DNA of 64,000 nucleotides from Deltaproteobacteria bacterium (GTDB lineage: Bacteria; UBA10199; JACPAL01). The stretch lies in the NCBI GenBank assembly GCA_016180855.1, contig JACPAL010000018.1:17066-81065 (forward strand), in the 5' to 3' direction. The notes beneath the pieces are model-generated. The model was not told the DNA's origin. It saw only the letters and a program-made list of their open reading frames with translations, and did no database searches. Positions 3,987 to 62,824 of this stretch are shown here, piece by piece. The position numbers and the translations under genes were made by a program. The stretch's first letter is position 1. Each line of letters opens with the position of its first letter.

Positions 3987-5296
3987 CTCATGATCCCCAC
4001 AATGCGTGGCGGGCTACAAAGATATTTTTGACTCACACGAACAATTTCCTCACGAGTGATCCCCTGAATAACATCCGTGTAGGTTTTGAGATATTGCCAG
4101 TCACCAGCGGCAATCTCAAAAAAAGAGAGCCGCCAGGCAAGATCCTCATTGGTCTTCAGACCCCAGACCATTTCGACAAGCAGCCGGTTAATCGCCCGCT
4201 GGACCTCCTGCTCTGTCGGCCCCGTCGCACAAAAATTTTTCATCGCTTCATCAAAGAGTTGCAACGCCTTTTCGGGAGAGGTTCCCGTCAGCGGCTCAAT
4301 CTCCACAAAGAAAAGATTCGGCCCACGATTCCCCGGAAACTGGGTTGATGCCTCTACCTCAGAGGCCACTTTCTCATCCAAGATCAGGGATCGATAAAGG
4401 CGTGATCCCCTCCCCTCTCCCAAGATCTGATGGATCAGATCAAACACATAATCATCACGATCGGGCAGTGGGGGCTTCAAGTAACCGATCTGTATCCGCG
4501 ATCCGTTCCCTCCCTCCACTTCAAAAGAGAGACCCTTTTCAAAGGCATGCTTTTTAAACACGGTCTCTTTCTGCAATGGCCTTGATGGAATCTTGCCGAA
4601 GGTCTCTTGAAGGATCTTTTTTGCCTCTTCAAGGGAGAACTTTCCAACGATGACACCCACCGCGTTGGCAGGATGATAGTGACTCTCCCAAAAGGAGCGA
4701 AGATCGTCCAGAGTAATCCTCTTTAAATCCTCGGGATAACCAAGGACAGGCCACTCAAACGGGGTATCGGCAAATGCCTTTTCGACAAATTCCTCCGCCA
4801 GTCTCCCATGAGGATTGTTATCAACCCTCATCCGGCGTTCCTCCAGGATGACATTCCTCTCTCGATCAAAATCACGAAAGACCGGATGAAATATTCTTTG
4901 CGATTCGATCTCCGCCCAAAACCGAAGTTTGTCCGACGGGAAACTGACCATGTAGCTGGTCATGTCCCGAGAGGTGGTTGCATTGAATTCCTTTCCCCCC
5001 TCTCTTTCAATCAACTGGACAAGCCCCTTCTCATCCAAACTCTCGGTTCCCTTAAACGCCATATGCTCCACGAAATGGGCAAGACCTGTCTTTCCTTTCT
5101 CCTCATCCATTCCACCGACACGAAAGCGGATATAGGAGGTGAAAATCGGAGCCTCCCCCCTTGGCAGAAGCAAAAATTTCATTCCATTCCGAAGTTCGAA
5201 TTCAACCACCCGATCGAGATCGGTGGCAGAAAATGAAGAAAGGCTGATGAGACAAAAAATGGCAATGAAAACAGACCGGATCTGCATGAGAATCAA
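3983..5296 (-). CDS. M16 family zinc peptidase (pitrilysin-like), secreted
   Basis: Inverted zinc motif HFVEH (HxxEH) near the N-terminus, followed by a downstream Glu. Signal peptide present. Confidence 0.85.
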   Translation of the reverse strand: MILMQIRSVFIAIFCLISLSSFSATDLDRVVEFELRNGMKFLLLPRGEAPIFTSYIRFRVGGMDEEKGKTGLAHFVEHMAFKGTESLDEKGLVQLIEREGGKEFNATTSRDMTSYMVSFPSDKLRFWAEIESQRIFHPVFRDFDRERNVILEERRMRVDNNPHGRLAEEFVEKAFADTPFEWPVLGYPEDLKRITLDDLRSFWESHYHPANAVGVIVGKFSLEEAKKILQETFGKIPSRPLQKETVFKKHAFEKGLSFEVEGGNGSRIQIGYLKPPLPDRDDYVFDLIHQILGEGRGSRLYRSLILDEKVASEVEASTQFPGNRGPNLFFVEIEPLTGTSPEKALQLFDEAMKNFCATGPTEQEVQRAINRLLVEMVWGLKTNEDLAWRLSFFEIAAGDWQYLKTYTDVIQGITREEIVRVSQKYLCSPPRIVGIMR

Positions 5297-5680: not shown

Positions 5681-5692
5681 AAGCACCATCCG

Positions 5693-7684
5693 GTGAAAAC
5701 GAGTCCCGCTAAAAATCAGGAACCCTTTTCCTTTGAAGAAGCGGTTTTTAAGGCGAGGGAGGCACTGCTTTCGGATCAATCCCCTAAAGGATACTGGTGG
5801 TACACCCTTGAGGCGAATGAGACGATTGGGGCCGGCTTCATCCAGCTGATGCATTTTTTAGGTGATGTCGATGCCGAGGTCGAAAAGGGTCTCGCCAGAA
5901 GAATTCTATCGGAACAGCGGCAAGACGGCTCTTGGGCCATTTTTTACGGAGGGCCAGCGGATCTTTCGACATCGATTGAATGCTATTTTGCCCTCCGTCT
6001 TGCCGGCCATTCTCCGGATGAGCCGGCGCTGGAACGTACAAGACTGTTTATTCTCTCTCACGGTGGGCTTGAGAGGGTTCGGGTTTTCACCAAAATTCAT
6101 CTGGCGCTTTTTGGGTTGATTACATGGGCGAAGTGCCCCTCAATGCCGCTCTGGTTTATCCACCTGCCCCACTGGCTTGGAATTTCAATCTATGAATTCT
6201 CCAGTTGGGCAAGGGCATCGATTGTACCACTGTTAATTATCCTGGATCGAAAACCAGTCAGGCCTCTTTCTTTTGATCTGAAGGAGCTTAAAGTATCCCC
6301 TCCCTTACTCTCTCCCCTTAAAATAAGGGGAGGGATGGGGAGGGGATATCAGTTTCCATGGAGGAACTTTTTCCTTCTTTTAGACAAAATCTTCAAAGCT
6401 ACGGAAAAACTTCCTTTTCATCCCGGTAAACAACATTTTCTAAAGAAATGTGAGGAATGGATCAGACGTCATATCGAAAGGACGGAAGATATCTACCCCG
6501 CAATGGCCTATGCCGCCTTGGCCATGAAGGCGCTTGGGTATCCCAATAGTGATCCAACAATCCAGAAGGCGTTAGCAGGCCTTAGACGATTTCAACAAAG
6601 TCACCGGGGCACTGACTTACCGATGGTAAGTGATAAGTCGGTAGGGGGCGGAGCCCCCTCCGAGTATCTTATCCATCAACAGTGTTGCATCTCCCCCCTA
6701 TGGGATACCCCCTGGGCCTGTCATGCCCTCTTGGAATCGGGCCTTCCGGCCGACGACCCCCATCTGAAAAGGGCCGCAAAATTTCTCATTTCAAAACAGA
6801 TTGTGGACTTTCATGGCGACTGGTCCCTCAAAAACAGCAGCGCCAAACCAGGTGGTTGGGCGTTTGAGTTTCAAAATGACTATTTTCCCGATGTCGACGA
6901 CACGATTGAAATCCTCCGCTTCATGAAAAGGGTCGATCTGCCGGTATCAGAGAAGAAGGGGACAATCGATCGGGGGCTTGAATGGCTCCTCTCCATGCAA
7001 TCAAAAAACGGTGGTTGGGCCGCATTTGACAAGAACAATCTTTCTACCTGGGTCAACAAGATTCCATTCTCCGATCACGGGGCCTGCCTCGACCCGCCAA
7101 CCCCGGATATCACGGGTCGAATGATTGAATTGTTGGTCTTGTTTAATTATTCAAAGGAGGATCCAGTCATCCAAAACAGCTTGAATTTTTTGTTTAAAAC
7201 CCAGGAACCGAATGGATCCTGGAGGGGGCGATGGGGGGTCAATTACCTTTACGGAACCTGGTGTGTCGTTCAGGGACTCGCCATGATCCACGATGAAAAA
7301 ACAGGGCTCGCGATTGGCCGCGCGATACGCTGGCTCCAGTCGGTCCAGAACCCGGATGGCGGTTGGGGAGAATCCTGCCTTTCAGACAAGGAAAATCGGT
7401 ATCTCCCCTTAGAGGTTTCAGTTCCTTCTCAAACCGCCTGGGCCGTCATGACCCTGATCGCCGCCGGCAAAAGAAGTTCCGAGTCGTGTCGCCGCGGAAT
7501 TGATTTTCTTATTGCCTCACAAACAGCCGACGGCCGATGGGAGGAAAGACACTTTACAGGAACGGGATTCCCGGGACATTTCTACATCCGCTATCACGGC
7601 TACCGACAGTATTTTCCGCTGCTCGCGTTGGGGAAATATCGAACGGACAAAAGAGAGCTGAAAACTATCGCTTGTCCGGCTTGA
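5693..7684 (+). CDS. shc: squalene-hopene cyclase
   Basis: DVDDT (DxDDTA) catalytic motif, repeated QW motifs (GGW/GSW) and CxSPLWDT. 663 aa. Confidence 0.9.
   Translation: MKTSPAKNQEPFSFEEAVFKAREALLSDQSPKGYWWYTLEANETIGAGFIQLMHFLGDVDAEVEKGLARRILSEQRQDGSWAIFYGGPADLSTSIECYFALRLAGHSPDEPALERTRLFILSHGGLERVRVFTKIHLALFGLITWAKCPSMPLWFIHLPHWLGISIYEFSSWARASIVPLLIILDRKPVRPLSFDLKELKVSPPLLSPLKIRGGMGRGYQFPWRNFFLLLDKIFKATEKLPFHPGKQHFLKKCEEWIRRHIERTEDIYPAMAYAALAMKALGYPNSDPTIQKALAGLRRFQQSHRGTDLPMVSDKSVGGGAPSEYLIHQQCCISPLWDTPWACHALLESGLPADDPHLKRAAKFLISKQIVDFHGDWSLKNSSAKPGGWAFEFQNDYFPDVDDTIEILRFMKRVDLPVSEKKGTIDRGLEWLLSMQSKNGGWAAFDKNNLSTWVNKIPFSDHGACLDPPTPDITGRMIELLVLFNYSKEDPVIQNSLNFLFKTQEPNGSWRGRWGVNYLYGTWCVVQGLAMIHDEKTGLAIGRAIRWLQSVQNPDGGWGESCLSDKENRYLPLEVSVPSQTAWAVMTLIAAGKRSSESCRRGIDFLIASQTADGRWEERHFTGTGFPGHFYIRYHGYRQYFPLLALGKYRTDKRELKTIACPA
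6294..6348. repeat. GC-palindromic element (TTAA-centred subtype) inserted in-frame in shc
   Basis: atcccctcccttactctctccccttaaaataaggggagggatggggaggggat. Encodes VSPPLLSPLKIRGGMGRG. Confidence 0.65.
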
Positions 7685-7901: not shown

Positions 7902-8310
7902 TTCTTTCCTTGAAACGTCTGAGCATGCCGGGAAGATTGGAGCCGATGAGTTTAGAGGTAATCATCGAAGGGACAAAAATGCCAAAATCGATATCGACGG
8001 AATAGGTCGCCTCTGTCTTGCCATTCTTCTCCTTGAGAGACCACCCTCCATCATTCTTTTTAAAAAAATCCCCTTTGAGCAAACTCCAGGCCACTTTCTT
8101 CCCAGGGGTGCCGCTAACTTTAAGCGAATAATTAATCTTCTTTATAACCTGGATCTCAAACTCCACCTCAAGTGAGTTCCCTTTCTTAGAAAGGAGGGAG
8201 GCCTCTTTCACGTCCGGCAGAAAATCGGGGTATTTCTCAAAATCCATGATAATGTCGTAAACGGTCTTGGCAGGGGCCTCGATGAAGATTGTTTCAGACG
8301 CTTGCGTCAT
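7882..8310 (-). CDS. SRPBCC (polyketide cyclase/START-like) family protein
   Basis: About 140 aa with the typical N-terminal IEAPAKTVYDII...FEKYPDFLP pattern of this family. Confidence 0.6.
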   Translation of the reverse strand: MTQASETIFIEAPAKTVYDIIMDFEKYPDFLPDVKEASLLSKKGNSLEVEFEIQVIKKINYSLKVSGTPGKKVAWSLLKGDFFKKNDGGWSLKEKNGKTEATYSVDIDFGIFVPSMITSKLIGSNLPGMLRRFKERIENGCA

Positions 8311-15354: not shown

Positions 15355-16251
15355 ATGAGTCCCATCAAAGTGATGTCACTTAAAGAAGAACTCGAGGAGA
15401 TGCAAAATAACGTCGCCCTCTATAAGGCAAGCGATGAGAGACATCTTCATATGGAAGGGCCTGACGCGACCGATTATCTCCAAAGAATGGTCACAAATGA
15501 GGTCAAGACCCAGCCGATCGGCGAGGGACGTCACAACGCCCTGCTCGATCGAAAAGGTCATCCCCTCTCCCTCTTCTTTTTGATTAGGCTCTCCGAAAAC
15601 TTGTATCATCTGATTACACCACCCCAACTTAAGGAAAAGACCGCAGGGCTCTTGAAGAAATATAAGGTGATTGAGCGGTTTGAGATCAAAGATGTGAGTC
15701 AGGAGTGGGGGATTTATTGGGTAGTGGGATCTCCCGTGCCACCCGCTCTTCTGCCTGCTATTTGGCAAGAAACCATTTACAAAATCCCCGTTCGCAAAAT
15801 TCTCTATCCCAAAAATAACCCCCCTCCACTGGGAGATCTCCCTTCTGTTTCCAGACAGGCAATTGACCTCTTAAGGATGGAGGCGGGGATCCCGGAATAC
15901 GGTGTTGATATCGATGAGACGCATATTCTTCTGGAGGCCAATCTGGAGCATTGCTATAAGCGACAAAAAGGATGCTACCCCGGTCAGGAGGTGATCGAAA
16001 GAATATTGGCTTACGGTAAGGGACAGACACCGAAAAAACTTGTCACCCTGCTTGTAGAAGGAGAACGGGAGATACCCCCTAAGACAGCGATCTGGACGGC
16101 TGATAATCAAAAAGCAGGCGAAACAACCTCGGCCCTCTTTAACCCTTTAAAAAATGAGACCGTCGTCCTTGCCTACTTGGAGAATAAGTATCTTCCCCAA
16201 AGCAAGCTACATTTTGAGGATGGAACCTCTACAAAACTGCCCAGATGCTAG
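15355..16251 (+). CDS. ygfZ: YgfZ/GcvT-like folate-binding protein
   Basis: Signature KGCYPGQE near the C-terminal third, plus an aminomethyltransferase-like fold. Confidence 0.6.
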   Translation: MSPIKVMSLKEELEEMQNNVALYKASDERHLHMEGPDATDYLQRMVTNEVKTQPIGEGRHNALLDRKGHPLSLFFLIRLSENLYHLITPPQLKEKTAGLLKKYKVIERFEIKDVSQEWGIYWVVGSPVPPALLPAIWQETIYKIPVRKILYPKNNPPPLGDLPSVSRQAIDLLRMEAGIPEYGVDIDETHILLEANLEHCYKRQKGCYPGQEVIERILAYGKGQTPKKLVTLLVEGEREIPPKTAIWTADNQKAGETTSALFNPLKNETVVLAYLENKYLPQSKLHFEDGTSTKLPRC

Positions 16252-16347
16252 GCGCCCGCGAGCCAAAGACCGGAGCGTACTTGGCTGGTACGTGAGGATC
16301 TTTGGCGAGAGGGCAACAACGCAGATGGGCAGTTTTTAGAGGTTTTC
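16249..16347. repeat. family-1 related element (core gcgcccgc...ccggagcgtact...ggtacgtgagga...gcgggcaac...cagatgggcagtttttagagg) lacking TIRs
   Basis: Shares about 80 bp of core with 32905-33030 and the reverse complement of 47866-47970. Exactly spans the ygfZ-stop to PLP-enzyme-stop gap. Confidence 0.75.
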
Positions 16348-17646: not shown

Positions 17647-17804
17647 GTTATGGGGTGTGTTGAAAAATGGCTTTTGTGGACTGTTCAAAAATGCCCAGCT
17701 GCAAGACACCCCGAGGAGCCGCGACGCAGGCGTACTTGAGGGTACGTCGAGGAGCCGGCGACGAGGGGAACGCAGCAGATGGCATTTTTCAACAGTCCCT
17801 TATG
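17647..17804. repeat. family-2 MITE-like element with about 20-bp TIRs (GGGGACTGTTGAAAAATGCC) and TTATG flanks
   Basis: Near-identical to 37496-37626 apart from a 26-bp internal insertion. Fills the gap between the PLP-enzyme start and the recG stop. Confidence 0.8.
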
Positions 17805-21371: not shown

Positions 21372-21716
21372 TTAAAATTCGAAGGCCGGACGTGGCCGAT
21401 GGGCCTTTGTCAGCATCCTGTTAGCCCCTGACTCCTTCCTGTAACAGCTGGAGAGGAACAGCGATGATCTACTGAAGCAGTTCATTGTTATCCGCCTCCG
21501 CCAGAAAACCCTGCCGTCTTGCGGAAGGGAGCTCCATTTTTTGGATCTCTCCCGCTTTTTCTCTTCGATAATCTGCAGCAGATAATTCACATTCTGCTCG
21601 TTTAACGACTTAAGGAGTCGACGCGCCCCTTCAATGATCGGCTCCTCACCTCTGCATCTGGTAACAACCTTCATTTTCATGAACGGTAGGATAAGGGACC
21701 CGTCACTCCAAATCAA
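21372..21716 (-). pseudogene. in-frame-deleted remnant of a second small-protein + nucleotidyltransferase module
   Basis: The N-terminal MKMKVVTRCRGEEPIIEGARRLLKSLNEQ is paralogous to the 75-aa ORF at 22187-22414 (MKIVTKRKGRENPIEDARILQKTLNQ). It is fused directly to NVNYLLQIIEEKKRERSKK, which is paralogous to the C-terminal tail DINYLLRIIEEENREKSKK of the 168-aa NTase. Confidence 0.45.
21395..21424. repeat. solo family-1 terminal repeat (gatgggcctttgtcagcatcctgTTAG)
   Basis: Matches the right end of the 47841-47995 copy. No left partner found. Confidence 0.55.
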
Positions 21717-27620: not shown

Positions 27621-27690
27621 CCTCTCCCCTTGGCCTGCCCTGAGCGAACCTGTCCTGAGCATCGTCGAAGGAGCCGAAGGGCGGGTGAGG
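27621..27690. repeat. family-3 GC-rich palindromic element (C-rich left arm, G-rich right arm, core cctgagc...gtcctgagc...gtcgaagga), intergenic prototype
   Basis: ccctctccccttggcctgccctgagcgaacctgtcctgagcatcgtcgaaggagccgaagggcgggtgagggg, between the yraN stop and the fadD-like start. Confidence 0.7.
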
Positions 27691-27697
27691 GGAAAAA

Positions 27698-32837: not shown

Positions 32838-32904
32838 AAGGGAACCTCTAATAATTCAAATTTTCGGCACCTCGAAAAACGGCCCAGCGGTTCGACAAGC
32901 TCAC

Positions 32905-33030
32905 CCTCCTGAGCAAAGTCGAAGGAATGCAAGGCGCCCGCAAGGCCGCGACCGGAGCGTACTTTCGTGGTACGTGAGGACGCGGACGAAGCGGGCAACA
33001 CAGCAGATGGGTAGTTTTTAGAGGTGCCCA
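32905..33030. repeat. family-1 related element with 5' cctgagcaaagtcgaagga module
   Basis: Core alignment to 16253-16345 and 47866-47970. Located upstream of yicC. Confidence 0.75.
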
Positions 33031-43106: not shown

Positions 43107-45766
43107 AGGTTCCGATAGGTTTCCGAGAGGCGTTCTACCTTCTCGACGTTGGTTCTCTGTTTTTGCCGCTCCTCCGCCACAAGTTCAGGGTCAGCATGAT
43201 TCAAAAAACCAGGGTCGGATAATTTTTTATGGAGTCGATCTCCAAGCTCGTTCAGCTTCTGAATCTCCTTTTCAAGGCGCTTCTTCTCCGTTTCAAGATC
43301 GACAAGTCCTTCCAGTGGGAGATAGAGATCCAACCGGCCGAGTGAATAGTGGGCCATTTTTTTTGAAACTGGTTTTGCGGAGACAAACTGGAGACTGCAG
43401 GAACGCGTCATCTTTTCTATCATCCCCTTTTCCCCTTCCAGCCAATGCCTCTCCTCCCTCTCCTCAACAGACAGGATCGGCTGAATCTCCTGGGCAGCCT
43501 GAATCCCATTCTCACCACGCAATGTCCGAAGTGCCGTCACAATCTCCATCAATCTTTCAACACGCCTTGGCTCTCCCTCAAAGTCCCATTGTTTGGGAGT
43601 CGGAAAAGATTCTATTCCGATCGATAGCCCTTCTTTCTGATTTAAAAACTGACAGATCTCCTCCGTGATAAACGGCATGAATGGATGAAGGGCCCGGAGG
43701 GTTTCATCCAGAATCTCGGAGAAGACCGACTGATTCAACCGAACCTTGGAGAACTCCAGATACCAGTCACACAAGGTGTGCCAAAAAAAGTCATAAAGTT
43801 CCTTCGCCGCCTCATCAAAACGATACCCCTCGATTCCCCTTGTTATTTTTGCGAGTGAAGAGGCCCACTTCTGCAAAATCCATTGATCATAGTCGCTTAA
43901 GATCTCGCGAGAGATCTCCTGAGGCGGCAGGCTCACAAAAAAACGCGCCGCGTTCCAGATCTTGTTACAGAAGTTCCGATACCCCTCAATCACGGGCTCG
44001 GAGAGCTTCACATCACGACCGGGCACCGCCAGGACCGCCAACGTAAAACGAAAGGCATCCGTACCAAATTGATCCATGATCGTGAGCGGATCAATGACAT
44101 TTCCCTTCGACTTGCTCATCTTCTGTCCCTGCGCGTCACGCACGAGGGCATGGATATAAATATCCTTAAAAGGAACCTCCCCCATAAACTCAAGCCCCAT
44201 CATCATCATCCGGGCGACCCAGAAAAAAATGATATCGAAGCCCGTAATCAGAACCGATGTGGGGTAAAAGGTCTTAAGCTCCTCTGTCTGGTCCGGCCAA
44301 CCGAGTGTAGAAAAGGGCCAGAGGGCGGAGGAGAACCAGGTATCGAGAACATCGGAATCTTGCTCAAGTTCGGTCGAGCCGCAGGTGGGACATTTTTTAG
44401 GTATATCACGGGAAACAATAGGAGGACATATCCCCCCCTTCCCCCCCCTTAATTTAAGGGAGGGGATACAGTACCACGCCGGAATCCGATGCCCCCACCA
44501 GATCTGACGTGAAACACACCAATCTTTAATCTCACCCATCCAGTTCGCGTAGGTCTTTGTCCAATTGTCCGGAAAGAATCGTGCCTTTCCATCCTGAACC
44601 GCTTGAAGCGCCTTTTCCGCGAGTGGCTTTGTTTTTACAAACCACTGCATCGAAAGATACGGTTCCACAACAGTTCGACAGCGATAACAATGGCCAACCG
44701 AGAGCTTGTGCGGTTCAACCTTTTCAAGAAACCCTTGCTGCTCCAGCTCTTCGACAATCTTTTTTCGGCATTCGAAACGATCCAACCCCTGAAAGGAGAC
44801 CGCGTTTTCGTTCATCCTCCCTTCATCCGTAAAAATATTAATACGAGGGAGCTTATGGTCGTTTCCAAAAATGAAATCGTTGAAGTCATGGGCCGGGGTT
44901 ACTTTAACCGCACCCGTCCCAAACTCCTTGTCAACACGAGGGTCAGAAATAATAGGGATCTCCCGATTGACTAAAGGCAATAATAGTTTTTTACCAATAA
45001 GACCTTTATACCGTTCATCTTCAGGGTGAACCGCAACGGCGGTATCTCCAAGCATCGTTTCAGGACGCGTGGTGGCCACCCTCACCCCCACCCCCTCTCC
45101 CGCCCTTCGGCATGGCTCAGGGAAGGCCAAGGGGAGAGGAGAGGCAAATGGGTAGCGAACAAACCACAAATGCCCATTCGTCTCATGATGCTCTACCTCC
45201 AGATCGGAAAGCGCCGTCTTGCAACGAGGACACCAGTTGATGAGATAGAGATCACGGTAGATCAGCCCCTTGTTGTAAAGACGGACAAACGCCTCACGCA
45301 CGGCGCGCGAGAGCCCCTCATCCATCGTAAACCGTTCGCGCTTCCAGTCACAGGAGGCCCCCAATCTTTTTAGTTGATGAATGATCTGTCCACCCGACTG
45401 CCCCTTCCATTCCCAAACCTTTTCAATGAAGCGTTCCCTTCCCAAATCCTGTCGTTTCTTCCCCTCCTTGGCTATGTCACGCTCTACAACGTTCTGCGTC
45501 GCAATGCCGGCATGATCAGTCCCCGGCATCCAGAGGACATTGAACCCTTTCATCCGTTTGTAGCGGGCAAGGATGTCCTGGAGGGTGTTGTTCAGGGCAT
45601 GCCCCATATGAAGCGAGCCCGTGACGTTCGGTGGCGGGATCACCATACAAAATGGGGGTTTGGATGATTTTGGCTCTGCATGGAAGTAGCCTTCCTTGAG
45701 CCAGACTTCTGACCATCGTCTCTCAACTTCATGCGGCTCGTACGCCTTGGGGAGTTCCCTCTTCAT
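43103..45766 (-). CDS. valS: valine--tRNA ligase
   Basis: HMGH and KMSKS motifs, plus a C-terminal coiled coil. 887 aa. Contains two in-frame palindromic element insertions (see repeats). Confidence 0.95.
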   Translation of the reverse strand: MKRELPKAYEPHEVERRWSEVWLKEGYFHAEPKSSKPPFCMVIPPPNVTGSLHMGHALNNTLQDILARYKRMKGFNVLWMPGTDHAGIATQNVVERDIAKEGKKRQDLGRERFIEKVWEWKGQSGGQIIHQLKRLGASCDWKRERFTMDEGLSRAVREAFVRLYNKGLIYRDLYLINWCPRCKTALSDLEVEHHETNGHLWFVRYPFASPLPLAFPEPCRRAGEGVGVRVATTRPETMLGDTAVAVHPEDERYKGLIGKKLLLPLVNREIPIISDPRVDKEFGTGAVKVTPAHDFNDFIFGNDHKLPRINIFTDEGRMNENAVSFQGLDRFECRKKIVEELEQQGFLEKVEPHKLSVGHCYRCRTVVEPYLSMQWFVKTKPLAEKALQAVQDGKARFFPDNWTKTYANWMGEIKDWCVSRQIWWGHRIPAWYCIPSLKLRGGKGGICPPIVSRDIPKKCPTCGSTELEQDSDVLDTWFSSALWPFSTLGWPDQTEELKTFYPTSVLITGFDIIFFWVARMMMMGLEFMGEVPFKDIYIHALVRDAQGQKMSKSKGNVIDPLTIMDQFGTDAFRFTLAVLAVPGRDVKLSEPVIEGYRNFCNKIWNAARFFVSLPPQEISREILSDYDQWILQKWASSLAKITRGIEGYRFDEAAKELYDFFWHTLCDWYLEFSKVRLNQSVFSEILDETLRALHPFMPFITEEICQFLNQKEGLSIGIESFPTPKQWDFEGEPRRVERLMEIVTALRTLRGENGIQAAQEIQPILSVEEREERHWLEGEKGMIEKMTRSCSLQFVSAKPVSKKMAHYSLGRLDLYLPLEGLVDLETEKKRLEKEIQKLNELGDRLHKKLSDPGFLNHADPELVAEERQKQRTNVEKVERLSETYRNL
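44431..44470. repeat. GC-palindromic element (TTAA-centred subtype) inserted in-frame in valS
   Basis: atccccccccttccccccccccttaatttaagggaggggat. Encodes PSLKLRGGKGG, the same SLK[IL]RGG peptide as the shc copy. Confidence 0.65.
45066..45134. repeat. family-3 palindromic element (short form) inserted in-frame in valS
   Basis: The reverse complement cctctcctctccccttggccttccctgagc..ccgaagggcgggagaggggg aligns with 27621-27690. Encodes PLPLAFPEPCRRAGEGVGV in a variable ValS loop. Confidence 0.65.
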
Positions 45767-45793: not shown

Positions 45794-46615
45794 CTAAATT
45801 GCACGAAACTTTTTATCAGCAACGATCCTGAGCCCCTTCAAGGTCAGAAACGGCTCCAGCTTTTGAATGGTCCGACACTCCTTGGCAATCAAGGTGGCGA
45901 ATCCACCAGTCGCTATCACTGCCGTTTTCATACCAAGCTCCTTCTGAATGAGCCCTACCAGCCGATCGACGAGACCGGCGTATCCATAATAAACGCCTCC
46001 CTGGATACACTCCCTCGTCTGCCTCCCAATAACCCGCTTCGGTTTTGCAATTGAAACGAGCGGTAGCTTGGCTGTCTTCTCATGTAACGCCTCAAGGCAG
46101 ATTCGTAAGCCAGGAACGATCGGTCCACCAAGGTATTCCCCCTGCGCTGAAACGACATCCAAGGTCGTCGCAGTCCCGAAATCAATGATGATAATGGGAA
46201 CGGTCTTTAAATCCCCCCTCGCCCCCCTTTGACTTGTCCTGAGCCCTGTCGAAGGACAAAGGGGGGTTGGGGGGATTTTCCATGCCGCAACTGCATTCGC
46301 AATCCGATCGGCCCCCACTTCTGACGGTTTTTTTGTCTTAAACCTGATCGGCAGTTTTGTCCTGGATGTCACAAACAGAGGCTCAACTCCAAATTTCTTT
46401 CTGAGAAGAAGACGGAACGGTTTATCCAGTCGGGGGACAACACTTGCCACGACAACGCAATTAACTTGCGAGATCCAAAGTTTCCGCAAAAGGGAGAGCC
46501 CCTTGTGGGTCTCAAAACGACGATGCCACCGGAGCCGCTCCCCCTCAAATAGGCCGACGACAATATTTGTATTGCCTACATCAATGGCGAGAATCTTTCT
46601 CTTCCCCTCACCCAC
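45794..46615 (-). CDS. coaX: type III pantothenate kinase
   Basis: ILAIDVGNTN and IIIIDFGTATT phosphate motifs. About 20-25 aa longer than typical because of a palindromic in-frame insertion. Confidence 0.85.
   Translation of the reverse strand: MGEGKRKILAIDVGNTNIVVGLFEGERLRWHRRFETHKGLSLLRKLWISQVNCVVVASVVPRLDKPFRLLLRKKFGVEPLFVTSRTKLPIRFKTKKPSEVGADRIANAVAAWKIPPTPLCPSTGLRTSQRGARGDLKTVPIIIIDFGTATTLDVVSAQGEYLGGPIVPGLRICLEALHEKTAKLPLVSIAKPKRVIGRQTRECIQGGVYYGYAGLVDRLVGLIQKELGMKTAVIATGGFATLIAKECRTIQKLEPFLTLKGLRIVADKKFRAI
46211..46277. repeat. family-3 palindromic element inserted in-frame in coaX
   Basis: atcccccctcgccccccttt-gacttgtcctgagccctgtcgaaggacaa-aggggggttggggggat. Encodes IPPTPLCPSTGLRTSQRGARGD between conserved CoaX segments. 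Confidence 0.7.
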
Positions 46616-47185: not shown

Positions 47186-47842
47186 TTGCCCTTACTTATG
47201 ACAAGTCATCCTTCTCGTAAAGTGTTCCTGCTGTTGGGTGCATTGTATCTAGTCGTCGGTTTTTCGCTCGGGCAGACCTCAATCCCCTCCTCCTGCGGAA
47301 CCGATACGACAAGTCAGGCAGGAAGCGGTACCTCCTCTTCGAACTCGGGAGGAAGTTCAGGGAGTTCACTAACACTCACAAGTGATGACATTACAAGCGG
47401 CGGAACAATCGCCTCCACCTTTGCAATGACCGATTGCATGGGAGGCAACCAGTCTCCCCATCTCGCCTGGTCAGGTACCCTCCCCTCCGGAACCTTGAGT
47501 CTTGCCGTGACCGTAATTGACACAAGCTTTAACAACGCCGTTCACTGGCTCCTTTACAACATCCCAACCACGTCAACGACGCTTTCGAGAAACAGTTCTC
47601 CGAGTGAAATCTCAAATACAACCCGCGAGGTGCAGAATGTCTACGGGGATATCGATTACGGCGGCCCTTGCCCGCCGACCGGCGAGAGCCATACCTACCA
47701 GTTTACAGTTTGGGCGCTTGATGTTGCCGACCTCATGAACGTCTCCGGTTTCAACGCCAACAGCGGCTCCTCCGCCTACTCGCTGCTCCAGGAGCATGAC
47801 TTGGCATCGGCCAGTTTCAACGCCACTTTCGTTGGCCCTTAA
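47186..47842 (+). CDS. YbhB/YbcL (PEBP-family) protein with N-terminal signal/lipoprotein-like anchor and Ser/Thr-rich linker
   Basis: GGNQSPHLAW, HWLLYNIP and YGGPCPP...HTYQFTVWAL PEBP motifs. Confidence 0.75.
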   Translation: MPLLMTSHPSRKVFLLLGALYLVVGFSLGQTSIPSSCGTDTTSQAGSGTSSSNSGGSSGSSLTLTSDDITSGGTIASTFAMTDCMGGNQSPHLAWSGTLPSGTLSLAVTVIDTSFNNAVHWLLYNIPTTSTTLSRNSSPSEISNTTREVQNVYGDIDYGGPCPPTGESHTYQFTVWALDVADLMNVSGFNANSGSSAYSLLQEHDLASASFNATFVGP

Positions 47843-47995
47843 CAGGATAGCGACAAAGGCCCATCTACTGCGGGCTTCGACTGAGCTCAGCCGAAGTCTT
47901 GCCCGCTTCAACCGCAATCCTCACGTACCGGTAAAGTACGCTCCGGTTGCGGCCTTGCGGGCGCCTTGCATCTGGACCTTTGTCGCTATCCTGTT
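47841..47995. repeat. family-1 MITE-like element, full copy with 17-bp perfect TIRs CAGGATAGCGACAAAGG and TTAA/TTAT flanks
   Basis: aacaggatagcgacaaaggcc at the left end and ggacctttgtcgctatcctgtt at the right. Fills the convergent PEBP / Na-Pi transporter gap exactly and supplies part of both stop codons. Confidence 0.8.
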
Positions 47996-49637
47996 ATTCG
48001 ATTTCTTTTCCCGGCATCGAGGACTTCACAATCATCATAAGCTTCGTATTGACCCGGCGAAAATTAGAGAGAAGATCAAGGTGGATCGAACTCGTTTCAA
48101 ACGCCTCCTTGATCCCCCTGTGCAATCTCTGGAGATGGCCCTCGCGATAACGGCTCTCCAATTCCTCCAGATGTTTTTCGTGACGCACAATTTTGCGCGC
48201 CAGAGATTCATCCTCCGTCGTCAGGGTCGAGAGGGCGAGTTGAAAGTTTTCCAGGACCTTGCTGTGTAAATCCTGGATCTCTTTCCAACCCTCGCCTGAG
48301 AAAACTCGTCCCTTATGGATCTTCTTCTGGGCCAGCTCCAGAATATTCTTGTTGATGATATCACCGATCTCTTCAAAATCACTCGTCATCGCGACCAGGC
48401 TGAGTTCCAGGCGTCCCTGCTCGGGATTGATTGCCTCCTGTGAAATTTTTGCAAGATAGAATTTAATCTCCCGATCCAGGATATCCACCTTATCGTCCTT
48501 CTCCTCGATCATTTCGATCAGCAACGGATCATCCTTCTCAAAGACTTCGATCAGGTCACGAAACATCTCACAGGCAATCTCTCCCATCCGAAGAATTTCG
48601 CGTTTTACATTGGCAAACGCCAGAGCGGGAGAGTCAGTGGCATCCTCCGAAAGATACTTCGGCCCAAAAAGGTCCTCGCCGGGAGGTGGAATCGGAACCA
48701 CCTTCCGGATTATCCAGGCACCCTGACGGATGAAAGGAAGAAAAAAGACAGAAAGGGCGAGGTTAAAACAGACATGGGATAAGGCAATCTGACCAGCCAC
48801 ATTTCCTGACAAGGAGAGAAGCGAGGATAACCACTCAACCCCCTTGACTGTATTGGCAAGAAAAACAAGGGCAACAGAGGCACCACTCAATTTAAAAAAC
48901 AGATGGGCAAGTGCCACCTGCCTCGCCGGAGCCCCACCACGCGCCCCGTGTAGAAAGGTCATGGCACACGTCCCAACATTCGCCCCCAAGACAAGAGGAA
49001 CGGCATGGGACATATCAATGACCTGGGAGAGCGCCATCGCAATCGTGAGTCCCAGGGTTGTCGCACTATTTTGAACCAGGGCCGTGAATCCAATTGCCAA
49101 AAGAAAACTGTAGGAAGGTTTTTCCGATAAGAGATTAAAAATTTCGACCAAAAAGTGATTTTCACGAAGGGGAGTCGTGATCTGAACCATCAACTGCATC
49201 CCCAAAAAAACAAAGCCAAAGCCCATCACAATCATACTGAGGTAGCGGATTTTTTTACTCTTAAAAAAAATCTCGATAAAGATTCCCGTCACAAGCATGA
49301 GGAGGGCATACTCCGCCACCTGCCGGATCGAAAGCAGGATGACGACGAACGCAGTCCCAATATCCGCCCCGAGGATCACCCCCATCGCCTGCTGGAGAGA
49401 AAGGACACCGCTTGTTGCAAATCCGATCAGCATAACGGTTGTCGCAACGGAGCTTTGCAGAATGAGGGTCACAAGAACACCGGTCAAGAGGGCCGAAAAT
49501 CGGTTCTCGGTGAGCGCTGAAACAAGCCGCCTCAACCGATTACCTGCCAGGAGCTGGATTCCGATGCGCGATTGGCGAATTCCATAAATGAAAATGGCAA
49601 TCGCCCCCAGAAAAGAAATAAGCGAGAAGGATGTCAA
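47994..49637 (-). CDS. Na/Pi-cotransporter II-related protein with C-terminal PhoU domains
   Basis: Duplicated NptA membrane repeats plus C-terminal PhoU-like helices. Confidence 0.8.
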   Translation of the reverse strand: MTSFSLISFLGAIAIFIYGIRQSRIGIQLLAGNRLRRLVSALTENRFSALLTGVLVTLILQSSVATTVMLIGFATSGVLSLQQAMGVILGADIGTAFVVILLSIRQVAEYALLMLVTGIFIEIFFKSKKIRYLSMIVMGFGFVFLGMQLMVQITTPLRENHFLVEIFNLLSEKPSYSFLLAIGFTALVQNSATTLGLTIAMALSQVIDMSHAVPLVLGANVGTCAMTFLHGARGGAPARQVALAHLFFKLSGASVALVFLANTVKGVEWLSSLLSLSGNVAGQIALSHVCFNLALSVFFLPFIRQGAWIIRKVVPIPPPGEDLFGPKYLSEDATDSPALAFANVKREILRMGEIACEMFRDLIEVFEKDDPLLIEMIEEKDDKVDILDREIKFYLAKISQEAINPEQGRLELSLVAMTSDFEEIGDIINKNILELAQKKIHKGRVFSGEGWKEIQDLHSKVLENFQLALSTLTTEDESLARKIVRHEKHLEELESRYREGHLQRLHRGIKEAFETSSIHLDLLSNFRRVNTKLMMIVKSSMPGKEIE

Positions 49638-59846: not shown

Positions 59847-59946
59847 AACCACTCATCGAATCGAGAAATTCCTTGTTGGTCTTTGCGTTCTGCATCTTGT
59901 CGGTCAAGAACTCCATCGCATCGACCACGTTAAGCGGTTGCAGGAC
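59847..59946 (-). pseudogene. displaced duplicate of the last 33 codons of rho
   Basis: 100 bp identical to 62825-62924, encoding [33 protein letters not shown]. About 12 nt of residual similarity (HLNR versus HLDRK) continue upstream, then the sequence is unrelated. Confidence 0.65.
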
Positions 59947-62824
59947 ACGATTCAAATGAGTAACCGTTCTACTCAGAGAGCCCACAATAACCAGGGATCG
60001 GACCGCTGTTTCCGTCAGGATCAATACAGGTTTCCGTCGGAAGACAGTCAATATCGCTCGAATCAATTCTGCCTGCCCTTGTTGGATCGCAGATGTACTC
60101 CTGCACGGAATAAATAGTACGGCCATAACTTAATCTCGAGTGACAAGAATCAGCATAAATAAATGATTGATCTAGACTATCATGTACTGTCAACGTCACG
60201 GAACCTCCAATCCCTGGCATCATTCCACCATCGCTATCATCACAGCTAAAGGTAATACCTTCGTCAATTTCCTCATTGCAGTTGTCATCCCGGCCATCCA
60301 GCCGTTCGAGTTCTATACCGGGGTTTGTAGAAGCTCTATTATCGTCACAATCCCCACCCCCAAAGGAACAAATAGAAAGTATCCCATCCGAGACCATAGC
60401 CATATTCAGGTCGCAATAGTTATCACGATCATCATCACAACCCTCATCAACTCTCCCATTACAATCATTATCAGTATTGTCGCAGATTTCAGGGGCATAA
60501 ACACAATCTGGTTCACCTAAATCAATCTGTACCACGGCTACCCTCTCCGAAGAAGTCGATGGCCCGACAAAGCGGACCTGCCATCCAAGACCTGTCGTAC
60601 ATGTTTCGCCAGGAAGGATAAAACCATCAAAAAGGTCATCCCTCCAATCCTCGCGAGAGTTGGGGCTACAATCAAGCAAATAGGTATGGCGGCCATTCTC
60701 GTCTGTTGTACATCTCAAGAAAAGAACGCCGATCGTTGCAAAATCAAAAGAATACAGATTTTCGAGACGAGATTGATCTGCAGAAAGGATGGCATCCATA
60801 ATTATCATGCGATCATAACCAAGGGGCTCCCTGTATTCAACGGATAGGGTGTCACAAGGTTCCGTGACGAAGCGTTCTGCCCGGTAATCGTGAACGACGC
60901 CACTGGTCAGGGCATTATCTACTTCAAGCTGGATACATTGAGGATCGGTACTACCAGCTTCAACGGCCCCCAAGAGATCGGGGAGAGCAGAAGATAAACC
61001 AGCCTCCATCTCCAACCACCCCAATTTTTCCTTATAAGCACAGTTAAAATGGCCATGGCCAGGGTAGGCAGCCATCGTATCAAAGGGGTCCCCATAATCC
61101 GACCTCTCAAGACAACTCCCCCCAAAGACCGACTCGCCACAATCGAGGTCATGCGCATGATTCAAACCTAAGACATGCCCCCCTTCATGAAGGATAGTTT
61201 CATCATCAAAATGGTTACGCCCCATCGTGATGGTGTGCAAGGCAACCAACCCATCATCCGTGGGCCACTCATGCCTCCCTAAATATCTGCCATTGCCTGC
61301 AGCGGTAGGATACAAAAGAAGCCAATCATAATTGGCAAAGTTCACCTGATCCTCACAGAGACGGATCATAGTTGGAATGATAAGACCAGAAGAGATCGAC
61401 GGTCGCGTGCTATCTGCATAGGCCTCACAAACATCAAATCCTATGGAAAACTGACCAAAGGAAAGTTCTCTGAAGCTCTCTTCGGCCGATCTTGTCTCAC
61501 GATCAACCGTCGCCCGATCACTGATCGCCGCCTCATAAGGATCATTTTGCCAATGAACATACAAAACAATCCCTCTGGCGCCAGGACCCACTGATAAATT
61601 CACTAAGCTCCGAAATTCGTCTGGAAGAGTTTCATCGCTCAAGATAGTGGGATCGTTTAAATCCACTAAAGAATAACTCTGCAACACAGCCCCCATTTCC
61701 AATAACATTACAGCAAGGGAATTCATCTCAACAAAATTCATATCGGCGAGGAAGGTCGTGTCGAGATGAGCAAAGGCTACCGGGTCGCTAAATTGACTCT
61801 TAAAACTTTCATAGAAAGCAGTGGCTGCTTTGCCCACCTCAGAACACCAATTTTCCCCTTCAAGTTGCCTGAAAAACGCCATCTGATCTGAAATCAGATC
61901 AAGTAATTTCCCCTCCCCGATGAACTTTTCATAAAGCGCAGGACTTAAGTTCCCAACCCTTAAGATCGCTTGCTCAAGTTGCTCGAGTCTTTGGGGCCAT
62001 ACCAGCTTGAACTCCTCACGAAACAGTTGATTAACAAGACGAGGCGCCCGATGACTAAAATTCGCAATCGCTATTTTGGCCAAATCAGACTCGCTTTCTT
62101 TAATCAAATCCCCTTTCAGAACAGAAAGAATCTTGGCTATTTCATTGATCTTCGATACTTCCGGGGTACATTGAACTGATCCAAACTCAATAAGATCTTT
62201 TGATAGAAGTTGCTCCAGTTCCGCTGCCTCACAAAGGGCAATTTCTCTGGATAGACCAACGCTGTCCATCTCCTCTTCCAACGATTTTCGGGATTCACGA
62301 AGAACGGTGAGAAAATTTTCCATCGCCAGTTTTCCGCCCATTAACTTTTTCATCTCTTCCTCAATTCTTCTCCCCTCAATAATAAAAAGAAGAATCATCT
62401 CATTATCGAGAATCGCTCCTTCTTCCATCAGTCGCATCATCTCTGACTCTTTTTCCAGTAATCCCTGGATTCCTGACTCGACCTCTACCAGTCTCTTTTC
62501 AACTTCATCTTGTTTGAAGCGGACGGTTTCAAGGCGGGAGGATATCAGAGAGAGGGGGGGGGTACCCTCCGGCGGAAAGGGGCAGCTAAACGCCCAAAGT
62601 TGGTTTGGCAGGGAGAAAACAAACAGGAGAACAACCAGGATCGGTATGTTGCGTGGCATAATCACCTCCCGTGAATGGTAGATATGCCATATTCATGCCA
62701 AATTCTGATTGTATAAAACTAGGTGATCAACTTTATGAAACTATTGTTAAATCTGAGTGTGGTCTTGTCTCTTTGTGAAGAGTAAAACGAGAAATGAAGT
62801 TCTGGTGAAAGAAAGTCTATTCTC
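59947..62824 (-). mobile_element. AT-rich single-gene islet inserted at the 3' end of rho, bounded by 100-bp direct repeats; no integrase present
   Basis: Perfect direct repeats at 59847-59946 and 62825-62924. The interior GC is about 44% against about 53% in the flanks. It carries only the metalloprotease gene and its AT-rich promoter. Confidence 0.5.
59969..62665 (-). CDS. secreted metzincin-like zinc metalloprotease with N-terminal coiled-coil region and C-terminal MopE-like Cys/Asp-rich repeats
   Basis: Signal peptide, HEGGHVLGLNHAHD (HExxHxxGxxH) and repeats such as CDDNRASTNPGIELERLDGRDDNCNEEIDEG. RBS GGGAGGTGA upstream. AT-rich (about 44% GC) relative to the flanks. Confidence 0.75.
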   Translation of the reverse strand: MIMPRNIPILVVLLFVFSLPNQLWAFSCPFPPEGTPPLSLISSRLETVRFKQDEVEKRLVEVESGIQGLLEKESEMMRLMEEGAILDNEMILLFIIEGRRIEEEMKKLMGGKLAMENFLTVLRESRKSLEEEMDSVGLSREIALCEAAELEQLLSKDLIEFGSVQCTPEVSKINEIAKILSVLKGDLIKESESDLAKIAIANFSHRAPRLVNQLFREEFKLVWPQRLEQLEQAILRVGNLSPALYEKFIGEGKLLDLISDQMAFFRQLEGENWCSEVGKAATAFYESFKSQFSDPVAFAHLDTTFLADMNFVEMNSLAVMLLEMGAVLQSYSLVDLNDPTILSDETLPDEFRSLVNLSVGPGARGIVLYVHWQNDPYEAAISDRATVDRETRSAEESFRELSFGQFSIGFDVCEAYADSTRPSISSGLIIPTMIRLCEDQVNFANYDWLLLYPTAAGNGRYLGRHEWPTDDGLVALHTITMGRNHFDDETILHEGGHVLGLNHAHDLDCGESVFGGSCLERSDYGDPFDTMAAYPGHGHFNCAYKEKLGWLEMEAGLSSALPDLLGAVEAGSTDPQCIQLEVDNALTSGVVHDYRAERFVTEPCDTLSVEYREPLGYDRMIIMDAILSADQSRLENLYSFDFATIGVLFLRCTTDENGRHTYLLDCSPNSREDWRDDLFDGFILPGETCTTGLGWQVRFVGPSTSSERVAVVQIDLGEPDCVYAPEICDNTDNDCNGRVDEGCDDDRDNYCDLNMAMVSDGILSICSFGGGDCDDNRASTNPGIELERLDGRDDNCNEEIDEGITFSCDDSDGGMMPGIGGSVTLTVHDSLDQSFIYADSCHSRLSYGRTIYSVQEYICDPTRAGRIDSSDIDCLPTETCIDPDGNSGPIPGYCGLSE

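Follow-up and report, generated by a model that had tools for sequence, protein, structure and literature searches.

How does a short repeat that lies between genes at one place in a genome come to be read as part of a conserved enzyme at another? The question is raised by valS, the gene for valine--tRNA ligase (ValRS; 887 amino acids; positions 43103 to 45766, minus strand), in a 64-kb stretch, called the window below, of a metagenome-assembled genome of the Deltaproteobacteria type. Orthologue search and alignment identify the gene as the host of an insertion. Its product matches Thermus thermophilus ValRS (1GAX) over the full length (E = 1.5e-258) and is identical to MBI2068179.1 (887 amino acids; P0121 among our orthologues). 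Within this otherwise intact ValRS, 61 nucleotides (nt) at 45079 to 45139 (minus strand) form the whole repeat-derived insertion. Most probably they derive from a dispersed, non-coding hairpin repeat, one copy of which inserted here in frame and has persisted because its site is a permissive, disordered surface loop.

The insertion in valS and its intergenic counterpart

In the coding direction, this part of valS has the sequence ...TACCCATTTGCCTCT CCTCTCCCC TTG GCCTTCCCTGAGCCATGCCGAAGG GC GGGAGAGGGG GTGGGGGTGAGGG TGGCCACCACG..., and four of the six reading frames are open across the whole 61-nt element. Together with the six bases that precede it (GCCTCT, 45140 to 45145), the insertion is read as ASPLPLAFPEPCRRAGEGVGVR, residues 208 to 229, in the context ...YPF-ASPLPLAFPEPCRRAGEGVGVR-VATTRPET. 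The conserved VATTRPET thus follows directly and in frame, with the TTRPET motif kept, and a tryptic peptide across the insert would end ...YPFASPLPLAFPEPCR.

The intergenic member of this repeat family measures 72 nt and lies at 27621 to 27692 (plus strand), 6 nt past the stop codon of a UPF0102/YraN-like gene and upstream of a gene for an AMP-binding enzyme. Two blocks connect it to valS, 45139 to 45115 (CCTCTCCCCTTGGCCTTCCCTGAGC, minus strand) being identical to 27621 to 27645 at 24 of 25 positions and 45111 to 45092 (GCCGAAGGGCGGGAGAGGGG, minus strand) to 27673 to 27692 at 19 of 20. The 25-mer CCTCTCCCCTTGGCCTKCCCTGAGC and the 20-mer GCCGAAGGGCGGGWGAGGGG each have two matches in the window, the intergenic one on the plus and the valS one on the minus strand, where 100 dinucleotide shuffles lead one to expect none for either block; blastn-short returned E values of 1e-6 and 1e-3. 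The alignment with the intergenic element that a preliminary description of this DNA had proposed is borne out by these figures. The bounds given there, 45066 to 45134, are off by a few bases: the element is present, but its repeat-derived part runs from 45079 to 45139 (about 61 nt), as it includes a G-rich tail of 13 nt. The center that the valS copy was said to lack is real as well, yet it measures 24 nt instead of 25, since the copies are 48 and 72 nt long between the same end points. The term palindromic holds for the terminal arms of 8 to 10 nt (CCTCTCCCC / GGGGAGAGG) and for nothing beyond them, and in predicted folding energy the sequence does not surpass its shuffled versions (z scores of 0 to -1.5).

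These comparisons also bear on one alternative, an ordinary lineage-specific low-complexity loop that resembles the intergenic sequence by compositional chance. Such a loop would fit the variable length and Pro/Gly-rich composition of this region in many ValRS, but two near-identical blocks in the same order, with none in the shuffles, already refute it, and the same arms and unit recur at hundreds of loci elsewhere; we give this explanation practically no credence. At gathering thresholds, Rfam yielded nothing for the whole window and five repeat-bearing loci, and at permissive E values the two elements gave only weak generic miRNA-hairpin matches far under threshold. No intrinsic terminator was found at the intergenic copy, and a full-text search of a literature library returned nothing relevant for the repeat sequences or the encoded peptides.

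A permissive loop in ValRS

What makes this position hospitable? In an AlphaFold model of ValS (mean predicted local distance difference test score [pLDDT], 83), the insert joins the strands formed by residues 191 to 207 and 227 to 232. Only three extended segments, the last of them short, fall below a pLDDT of 50: residues 214 to 224, which belong to this insert, residues 436 to 444, which belong to a second insert, and residues 552 to 556. Alignment with 1GAX places the insertion in the turn of RYEVE-GGGF-IEIATVRPET, at E205/G206. On the model, then, the insertion site is a permissive beta-hairpin tip, a surface site that appears compatible with the fold. The orthologue alignment agrees with the earlier statement that the element is translated in frame in place of a short variable loop before VATTRPET: many orthologues have a short loop or none here, and its length ranges from 0 to about 40 residues, P0003 and P0004 reading IKY-GPLT-VATT.

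Several orthologues carry repeats of their own at this position. In P0008 the same hairpin, in its simple form with the tail, is read in a different frame; P0009 has the two-hairpin form of it, P0002 has that two-hairpin form in the reverse orientation, and P0005 and P0014 have a different palindrome, headed by GTAG and starting GTAGGGGC...GCCCCTAC; the loop of P0003 is empty. On a neighbor-joining tree of ValS, filled loops are interleaved with empty sisters (for example, P0008/P0006, P0014/P0013, and P0002/P0007). Read from these sequences, the pattern implies at least five independent gains of repeats in the loop, or many more losses. Given that orientation and frame differ among the inserts, what they have in common is the permissive site and not an inherited insert.

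The same observations speak to the possibility that the extra loop, or a hairpin in the mRNA, changes ValRS function (editing-domain movement, tRNA contact, or translational pausing) and has been selected. The insert stands directly before TTRPET, at the start of the editing domain, several lineages have kept inserts in this loop, and the long allele is present in two of three strains (see below), all of which would suit such co-option. However, the model has a pLDDT below 50 over the insert, among relatives the inserts show no relation to each other in sequence, orientation, or reading frame, the loop is empty in sister lineages, eight of the residues are dispensable between strains, and the mRNA fold is not unusually stable. 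We therefore consider co-option improbable; the insert, presumably translated, is more likely neutral or a merely tolerated passenger.

The preliminary description had also held that valS hosts two unrelated in-frame repeats, and this proved correct. The second, ATCCCCTCCCTTAAATTAAGGGGGGGGAAGGGGGGGAT, at 44430 to 44467 (minus strand), is a palindromic repeat read within IPSLKLRGGKGGICPP; it lies in the zinc-knuckle insert and matches the palindrome at positions 6293 to 6340 of the window. The squalene-hopene cyclase gene there (open reading frame [ORF] 5681 to 7681, plus strand) contains an in-frame palindrome of this second family, TATCCCCTCCC...GGGGAGGGGATA, at 6294 to 6348. A further variable region was noticed in the anticodon-binding part of ValS (alignment columns about 650 to 700), where P0003, P0004, P0005, P0006, P0008, and P0014 have repeat-like peptides such as VGAG..PRACP...GGHGGPPLR and ...RFFRYAQNDKNM; these suggest further in-frame repeat insertions in this ValS clade.

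A composite element that differs between strains

The valS element is a composite: the loop of a host hairpin contains a unit of 24 nt, GCCTTCCCTGAGCCATGCCGAAGG. Of the two arms of that hairpin, the C-rich one (CCTCTCCCC) occupies 45131 to 45139 and the G-rich one (GGGAGAGGGG) occupies 45092 to 45101, both on the minus strand, as are the nested unit at 45104 to 45127 and the 13-nt G-rich tail (GTGGGGGTGAGGG) at 45079 to 45091. The tail, a second G-arm typical of the repeat superfamily described next, recurs in the ValS inserts of P0008 and P0009 and at loci from a genome scan. The nested unit fits the consensus given below and encodes AFPEPCRR, the register of the insertion or deletion (indel) being ambiguous by one G.

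A two-arm scan of one genome per species located the C-rich arm at at least 120 loci. Among the matches listed, most are from Alphaproteobacteria, and Planctomycetota, Acidobacteriota, Gammaproteobacteria, Betaproteobacteria, and Myxococcota are also represented. The listed loci follow a common plan, CCTCTCCCC-TTGYG-GGAGAGG-GTGCC-[variable second hairpin, often ...GAGCGAAGCGA...]-GGCGGGTGAGGGG. By these sequence matches, the poly-C/poly-G host hairpin belongs to a superfamily of repeats widespread in bacteria.

The composite structure also accounts for the missing center of the valS copy, which is a second nested 24-nt unit of the intergenic copy. This unit, CCTGTCCTGAGCATCGTCGAAGGA, at 27649 to 27672 (plus strand), sits in the loop of the first unit (27634 to 27648 plus 27673 to 27681). 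A shorter form is found in strain L001 (GCA_016202325.1), which is 99% identical at the nucleotide level; there the same codons hold only CCTCTCCCC-TCGGC-GGGAGAGGGG and the tail and lack the 24-nt unit. Three forms can thus be laid side by side: 24 nt in L001 valS, where CCCCTCGG adjoins CGGGAGAGGGG; 48 nt in the window valS, consisting of CCCCTTGG, CCTTCCCTGAGCCATGCCGAAGGG, and CGGGAGAGGGG; and 72 nt in the intergenic copy, which is the window form with the further 24 nt in the loop of the first unit. The 48-nt form is shared by L349 (GCA_016187815.1), a third assembly, and this puts the long allele in two of the three strains.

Since the source material is metagenomic, an assembler might have stitched a repeat into valS. 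The L349 contig (JACPIZ010000042.1) stops 14 nt past the valS element, which fits the tendency of repeats to break metagenome assemblies and counts on the side of an artefact. Nevertheless, a version of the element stands at the same codon and in frame in three independent assemblies, distant orthologues from other samples have in-frame palindromes at the same loop, and the complete plasmid of a cultured isolate has the unit in frame in a gene (see below). An assembly artefact is accordingly very improbable.

Borders, structure, and spread of the 24-nt unit

Does the 24-nt unit exist apart from this host hairpin? Its consensus is (G)CYTGYCCTGAGC-N2-3-GYCGAAGGR, and the core has six matches in the window, compared with 0.37 expected; besides the two loci described above, the unit occurs in coaX (46233 to 46256) and at 32889 to 32926. 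A metagenome scan recovered it inside other outer arms on contigs with G+C contents of 0.39 to 0.64, and a viral collection contained 101 loci of CCTGCCCTGAGC-N2-3-GYCGAAGG with unrelated flanks and G+C contents of 0.41 to 0.72. Across these comparisons, the unit is 23 to 25 nt long and sharply bordered, with G at position -1 in 78% and at position +1 in 98% of the copies and background composition further out. A 5' tag, G-C-Y-T-G-Y, emerges when the core alone is fixed. The closing pair of the stem is paired in 138 of 152 copies, against 100 expected (C-G, 73; T-A, 29; T-G, 23; G-C, 8; A-T, 3). This covariation concerns the closing pair, the other stem positions having been set by the search pattern, and no pairing was found further out. 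A reading of the CUGAGC...GYCGAAGG core as a hammerhead or kink-turn motif was rejected, as the core lacks the extra nucleotides that define such motifs and Rfam offers no support.

Filled and empty sites could be compared directly at several loci. One metagenome contig, L129, carries both as paralogous sites, the filled site reading CCCCCCTTGG, 23 nt, GGGGTTTGGGGG and the empty one CCCCCCTTGGGGGGTTTGGGGG. L224 also has filled and empty paralogous sites, at a hairpin tip, and further pairs are L182 versus L177, L190, and L241; L186; and L163 versus L225, where a unit lies within a unit. In several of these pairs, the unit stands at the tip of a hairpin. Nesting within itself or within other repeats is seen in L163, L186, L213, and L225 as well as in the window, both at 27634 to 27681 and in the palindrome of coaX. 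Judged by these sequence features, the bounded 24-nt unit behaves as a discrete insertion would, with sharp borders, unrelated flanks, self-nesting, and presence or absence at otherwise matching sites. An attempt to find an empty allele of a phage gene by a scan with the L152-group flanks gave only the three filled copies.

Two of the nested cases merit description. The gene coaX (type III pantothenate kinase, 45794 to 46615, minus strand) contains an in-frame nested palindrome at 46209 to 46278, AAATCCCCCC-TCG-CCCCCCTTTGA-[24-nt unit]-CAAAGGGGGG-TT-GGGGGGATTT, with the unit at the tip. The insert adds about 20 residues (...PPTPLCPSTGLRTSQRGARGDL...) relative to the L138 and L142 orthologues and is identical in L001. 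L225, an IMGVR_UViG contig with a Mu-like element, has seven units in 8.8 kb and multilevel self-nesting; at about 1 to 110 and about 7980 to 8030, three or four half-sites are stacked, (CCCTGAGC-CGTG)n ... (GGGAGTCGAAGG)n.

Among cultured bacteria, plasmids from Trichlorobacter, Methylomonas, Sphingobium, Variovorax, Treponema, Nostoc, Anabaena, and Planktothrix carry the unit or close variants of it. In the Trichlorobacter lovleyi plasmid pIAE1 (L350, NZ_CP058410.1), the unit at 4003 to 4028 is in frame (PALSVVEG) near the C terminus of an IS91-family Y2 transposase, for which no empty copy was found, only the same plasmid being matched; three copies of this transposase gene are present on the plasmid, beside qacEdelta1 and sul1. 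The unit is absent from 5,426 Escherichia coli genomes and essentially absent from cultured phages.

How the unit may have moved

The proposal that we favor for the valS insertion has two layers. The first is the host hairpin, CCTCTCCCC-loop-GGGAGAGGGG followed by the G-rich tail, which would have come from the multi-phylum superfamily; the second is the 24-nt unit, a short 5'-tagged hairpin that would have entered at the tip of the host hairpin. Owing to the 8-codon length of the unit, together with the G+C-richness and scarcity of stop codons of unit and host hairpin, insertion into a gene usually adds a loop rich in Pro, Gly, and charged residues and leaves the frame intact. The unit has stops in one of its six frames, and its length and its freedom from stops in the other five would explain how it survives in genes, with selection presumably keeping only the insertions in tolerant loops.

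The unit's preference for hairpin tips, its 5' tag and imperfect hairpin, and the lack of a target duplication would be expected of HUH-type single-strand DNA transposition, as in the REP/RAYT system. By analogy, an enzyme acting in trans, perhaps one of the HUH/RAYT type, might have moved the unit as single-stranded DNA into exposed hairpin tips; alternatives to such an enzyme are template switching and gene conversion among copies of the repeat. Taken furthest, this view makes the unit a pan-bacterial mobile element moved in trans, among the smallest known, which enters single-stranded hairpin tips, including its own, builds "Russian-doll" palindromes without target duplication, and repeatedly adds 8-residue loops to essential proteins (ValRS and CoaX). 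We advance this extended proposal tentatively, as a possibility that falls somewhat short of probable.

Its main competitor dispenses with a mobile unit altogether. Hairpin-driven replication errors (slippage, deletion at the hairpin base, and templated mutation at quasi-palindromes), combined with gene conversion among the dispersed copies, would produce the variants, and the "unit" would be the most conserved core of the superfamily. Here the L001 allele is informative: three of its four private substitutions fall within about 65 nt of the 24-nt indel, one of them extending the stem to 10 bp, and the indel borders carry GG/GGC microhomology. Clustering of this kind makes conversion by a different copy of the repeat, or mutation templated by the hairpin, a serious alternative, and the L001 pattern fits such conversion or replacement, or such mutation, as well as it fits a clean insertion or excision. 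On the other side stand the sharp borders of the unit in more than 100 unrelated flanks, the same filled/empty differences of 23 to 25 nt in several unrelated host sequences, and the maintenance of one specific 24-nt sequence across phyla and G+C contents of 0.39 to 0.72, which calls for a copied donor and not local slippage. With this in mind, we regard the replication-error explanation as rather unlikely, although it has to be taken seriously.

Several further points count against movement of the unit, or against reading too much into the valS copy. Apart from an ambiguous single G, no target-site duplication was seen in the filled/empty comparisons. Pfam scans of the repeat-adjoining ORFs and of the 58.5- to 64-kb region detected no mobilizing enzyme, the window ORFs giving housekeeping matches only (AMP-binding enzyme, YraN-like protein, BirA, CoaX, Rho, and squalene-hopene cyclase). 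No RAYT (Y1 HUH transposase) was present among the scanned ORFs of the 64-kb window or in L225, and the unit-rich L225 likewise showed no HUH enzyme, having MuA/MuB-type genes instead. The absence of both a target-site duplication and an enzyme suits the replication-error explanation. Predicted folding energies of the elements relative to shuffled sequences gave z scores of +0.4 to -2.7, mostly not significant, and this exact family is represented just twice in the window. The three strains are all known from metagenome-assembled genomes, in which repeats are prone to assembly error, and the 24-nt change, as seen in the aligned sequences, may be either a gain or a loss. This mini-element has a wide distribution and may be mobile by itself.

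Relation to known repeat families

Of the known small repeats, the SDRs (small dispersed repeats) of Nostoc appear closest. Those described by Elhai et al. in 2008 are reportedly 21 to 27 nt long, share a predicted hairpin, nest within themselves, lie inside other repeats, and are variably present; to our knowledge, SDRs have been described for cyanobacteria only. By this description, the 24-nt unit behaves most like the SDRs, with its length of 23 to 25 nt, sharp borders, nesting, and presence or absence between relatives, and related copies reside in the Nostoc, Anabaena, and Planktothrix plasmids. Unlike SDRs, the unit occurs in a Deltaproteobacteria-type genome, many other phyla, and viral-collection contigs and is translated inside essential genes.

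Tagged REPs (repetitive extragenic palindromes) with GTAG or CGTC tags are 20- to 40-nt hairpins with an unpaired 5' tag, mostly extragenic and near the 3' ends of genes, and a number of them stand in frame within ORFs, genes for tRNA synthetases among them (Di Nocera et al. 2013, PMC3733652). The intergenic copy in the window is similarly placed near a gene 3' end, and the ValS inserts of P0005 and P0014 start with GTAG. In contrast, the 24-nt unit has the tag GCYTG, a conserved TGAGC...GYCGAA core, and a closing stem of only 3 to 4 bp, and it nests at hairpin tips, which is no described REP feature. Because of the tag mismatch (G-C-[C/T]-T-G-[C/T], with the host hairpin beginning CCTCTCCCC), the unit falls outside the REPs tagged with GTAG or CGTC.

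RPEs (Rickettsia palindromic elements; Ogata et al. 2000, summarized in PMC10969869) are about 100 to 150 bp long, are confined to Rickettsia and relatives, and are translated as extra peptide segments in housekeeping genes (PMC10969869). Common to both systems are dispersed palindromic repeats, intergenic as well as in-frame intragenic copies in conserved genes, and sites compatible with the fold. The valS family is set apart by description: its elements are 48 to 72 nt long and G+C-rich, consist of a hairpin with a nested 24-nt unit, and reside in a free-living Deltaproteobacteria-type host.

[quoted passage not shown] Like these, the valS element is a small non-autonomous repeat read through in a host ORF, with terminal inverted arms of 8 to 10 nt. 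MITEs have terminal inverted repeats that match a parent insertion sequence (IS) and produce target-site duplications, whereas the moving unit here is only 24 nt; within the 64-kb window, where no test was aimed at a parent IS, none with such ends came to light. As it shows no target duplication, the unit is not a classical MITE.

The type of event at valS is therefore already known from the Rickettsia RPEs and intragenic REPs. What goes beyond it is the nested, strain-polymorphic 24-nt unit, its spread across phyla, and the repeated colonization of one ValRS loop. The nested pan-bacterial unit, for all its likeness to the cyanobacterial SDRs, may be undescribed. The entry of selfish repeats into essential genes in frame is a recognized and rarely documented route to new protein loops; if the unit is indeed mobile on its own, the valS site, polymorphic between strains that are 99% identical, would be a live example. 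It also offers a testable system for asking how tiny hairpin repeats move, why they choose hairpin tips, and what they contribute to indels in conserved proteins. For annotation, the units matter in that they give rise to numerous spurious "hypothetical proteins" and interrupt the assembly of metagenomes.

Other repeats in the window

At 32889 to 32926, two unit cores in opposite orientation (GGTTCGACAAGCTCA / CTCCTGAGCAAAGTCGAAGGA) adjoin a different repeat at 32927 to 32980, which belongs to a 54-nt family with other copies at 16245 to 16298 and 47918 to 47971. The stretch from 47840 to 47996 is a MITE-like element of 157 nt with 24-nt inverted ends (TAACAGGATAGCGACAAAGGCCCA / TGGACCTTTGTCGCTATCCTGTTA). 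Sequences like its ends recur at 21398 and 28734, and a perfect palindrome within it, CTTCGACTGAGCTCAGCCGAAG, has the look of two unit cores fused together. A 99-nt direct repeat (17653 to 17751 and 37500 to 37598, 98% identical) has internal GGGACTGTTCAAAAATGCC subrepeats and a further copy at 40167 and makes up one more family of dispersed repeats. Finally, the 3' end of rho (62823 to 63968, minus strand) is duplicated exactly over 100 nt (59847 to 59946 and 62825 to 62924). The arrangement has the appearance of target duplication by an insertion or of a repeat made in assembly, and the two copies bracket an 898-residue ORF (59969 to 62665, minus strand) with only a weak MopE-like metal-binding motif.

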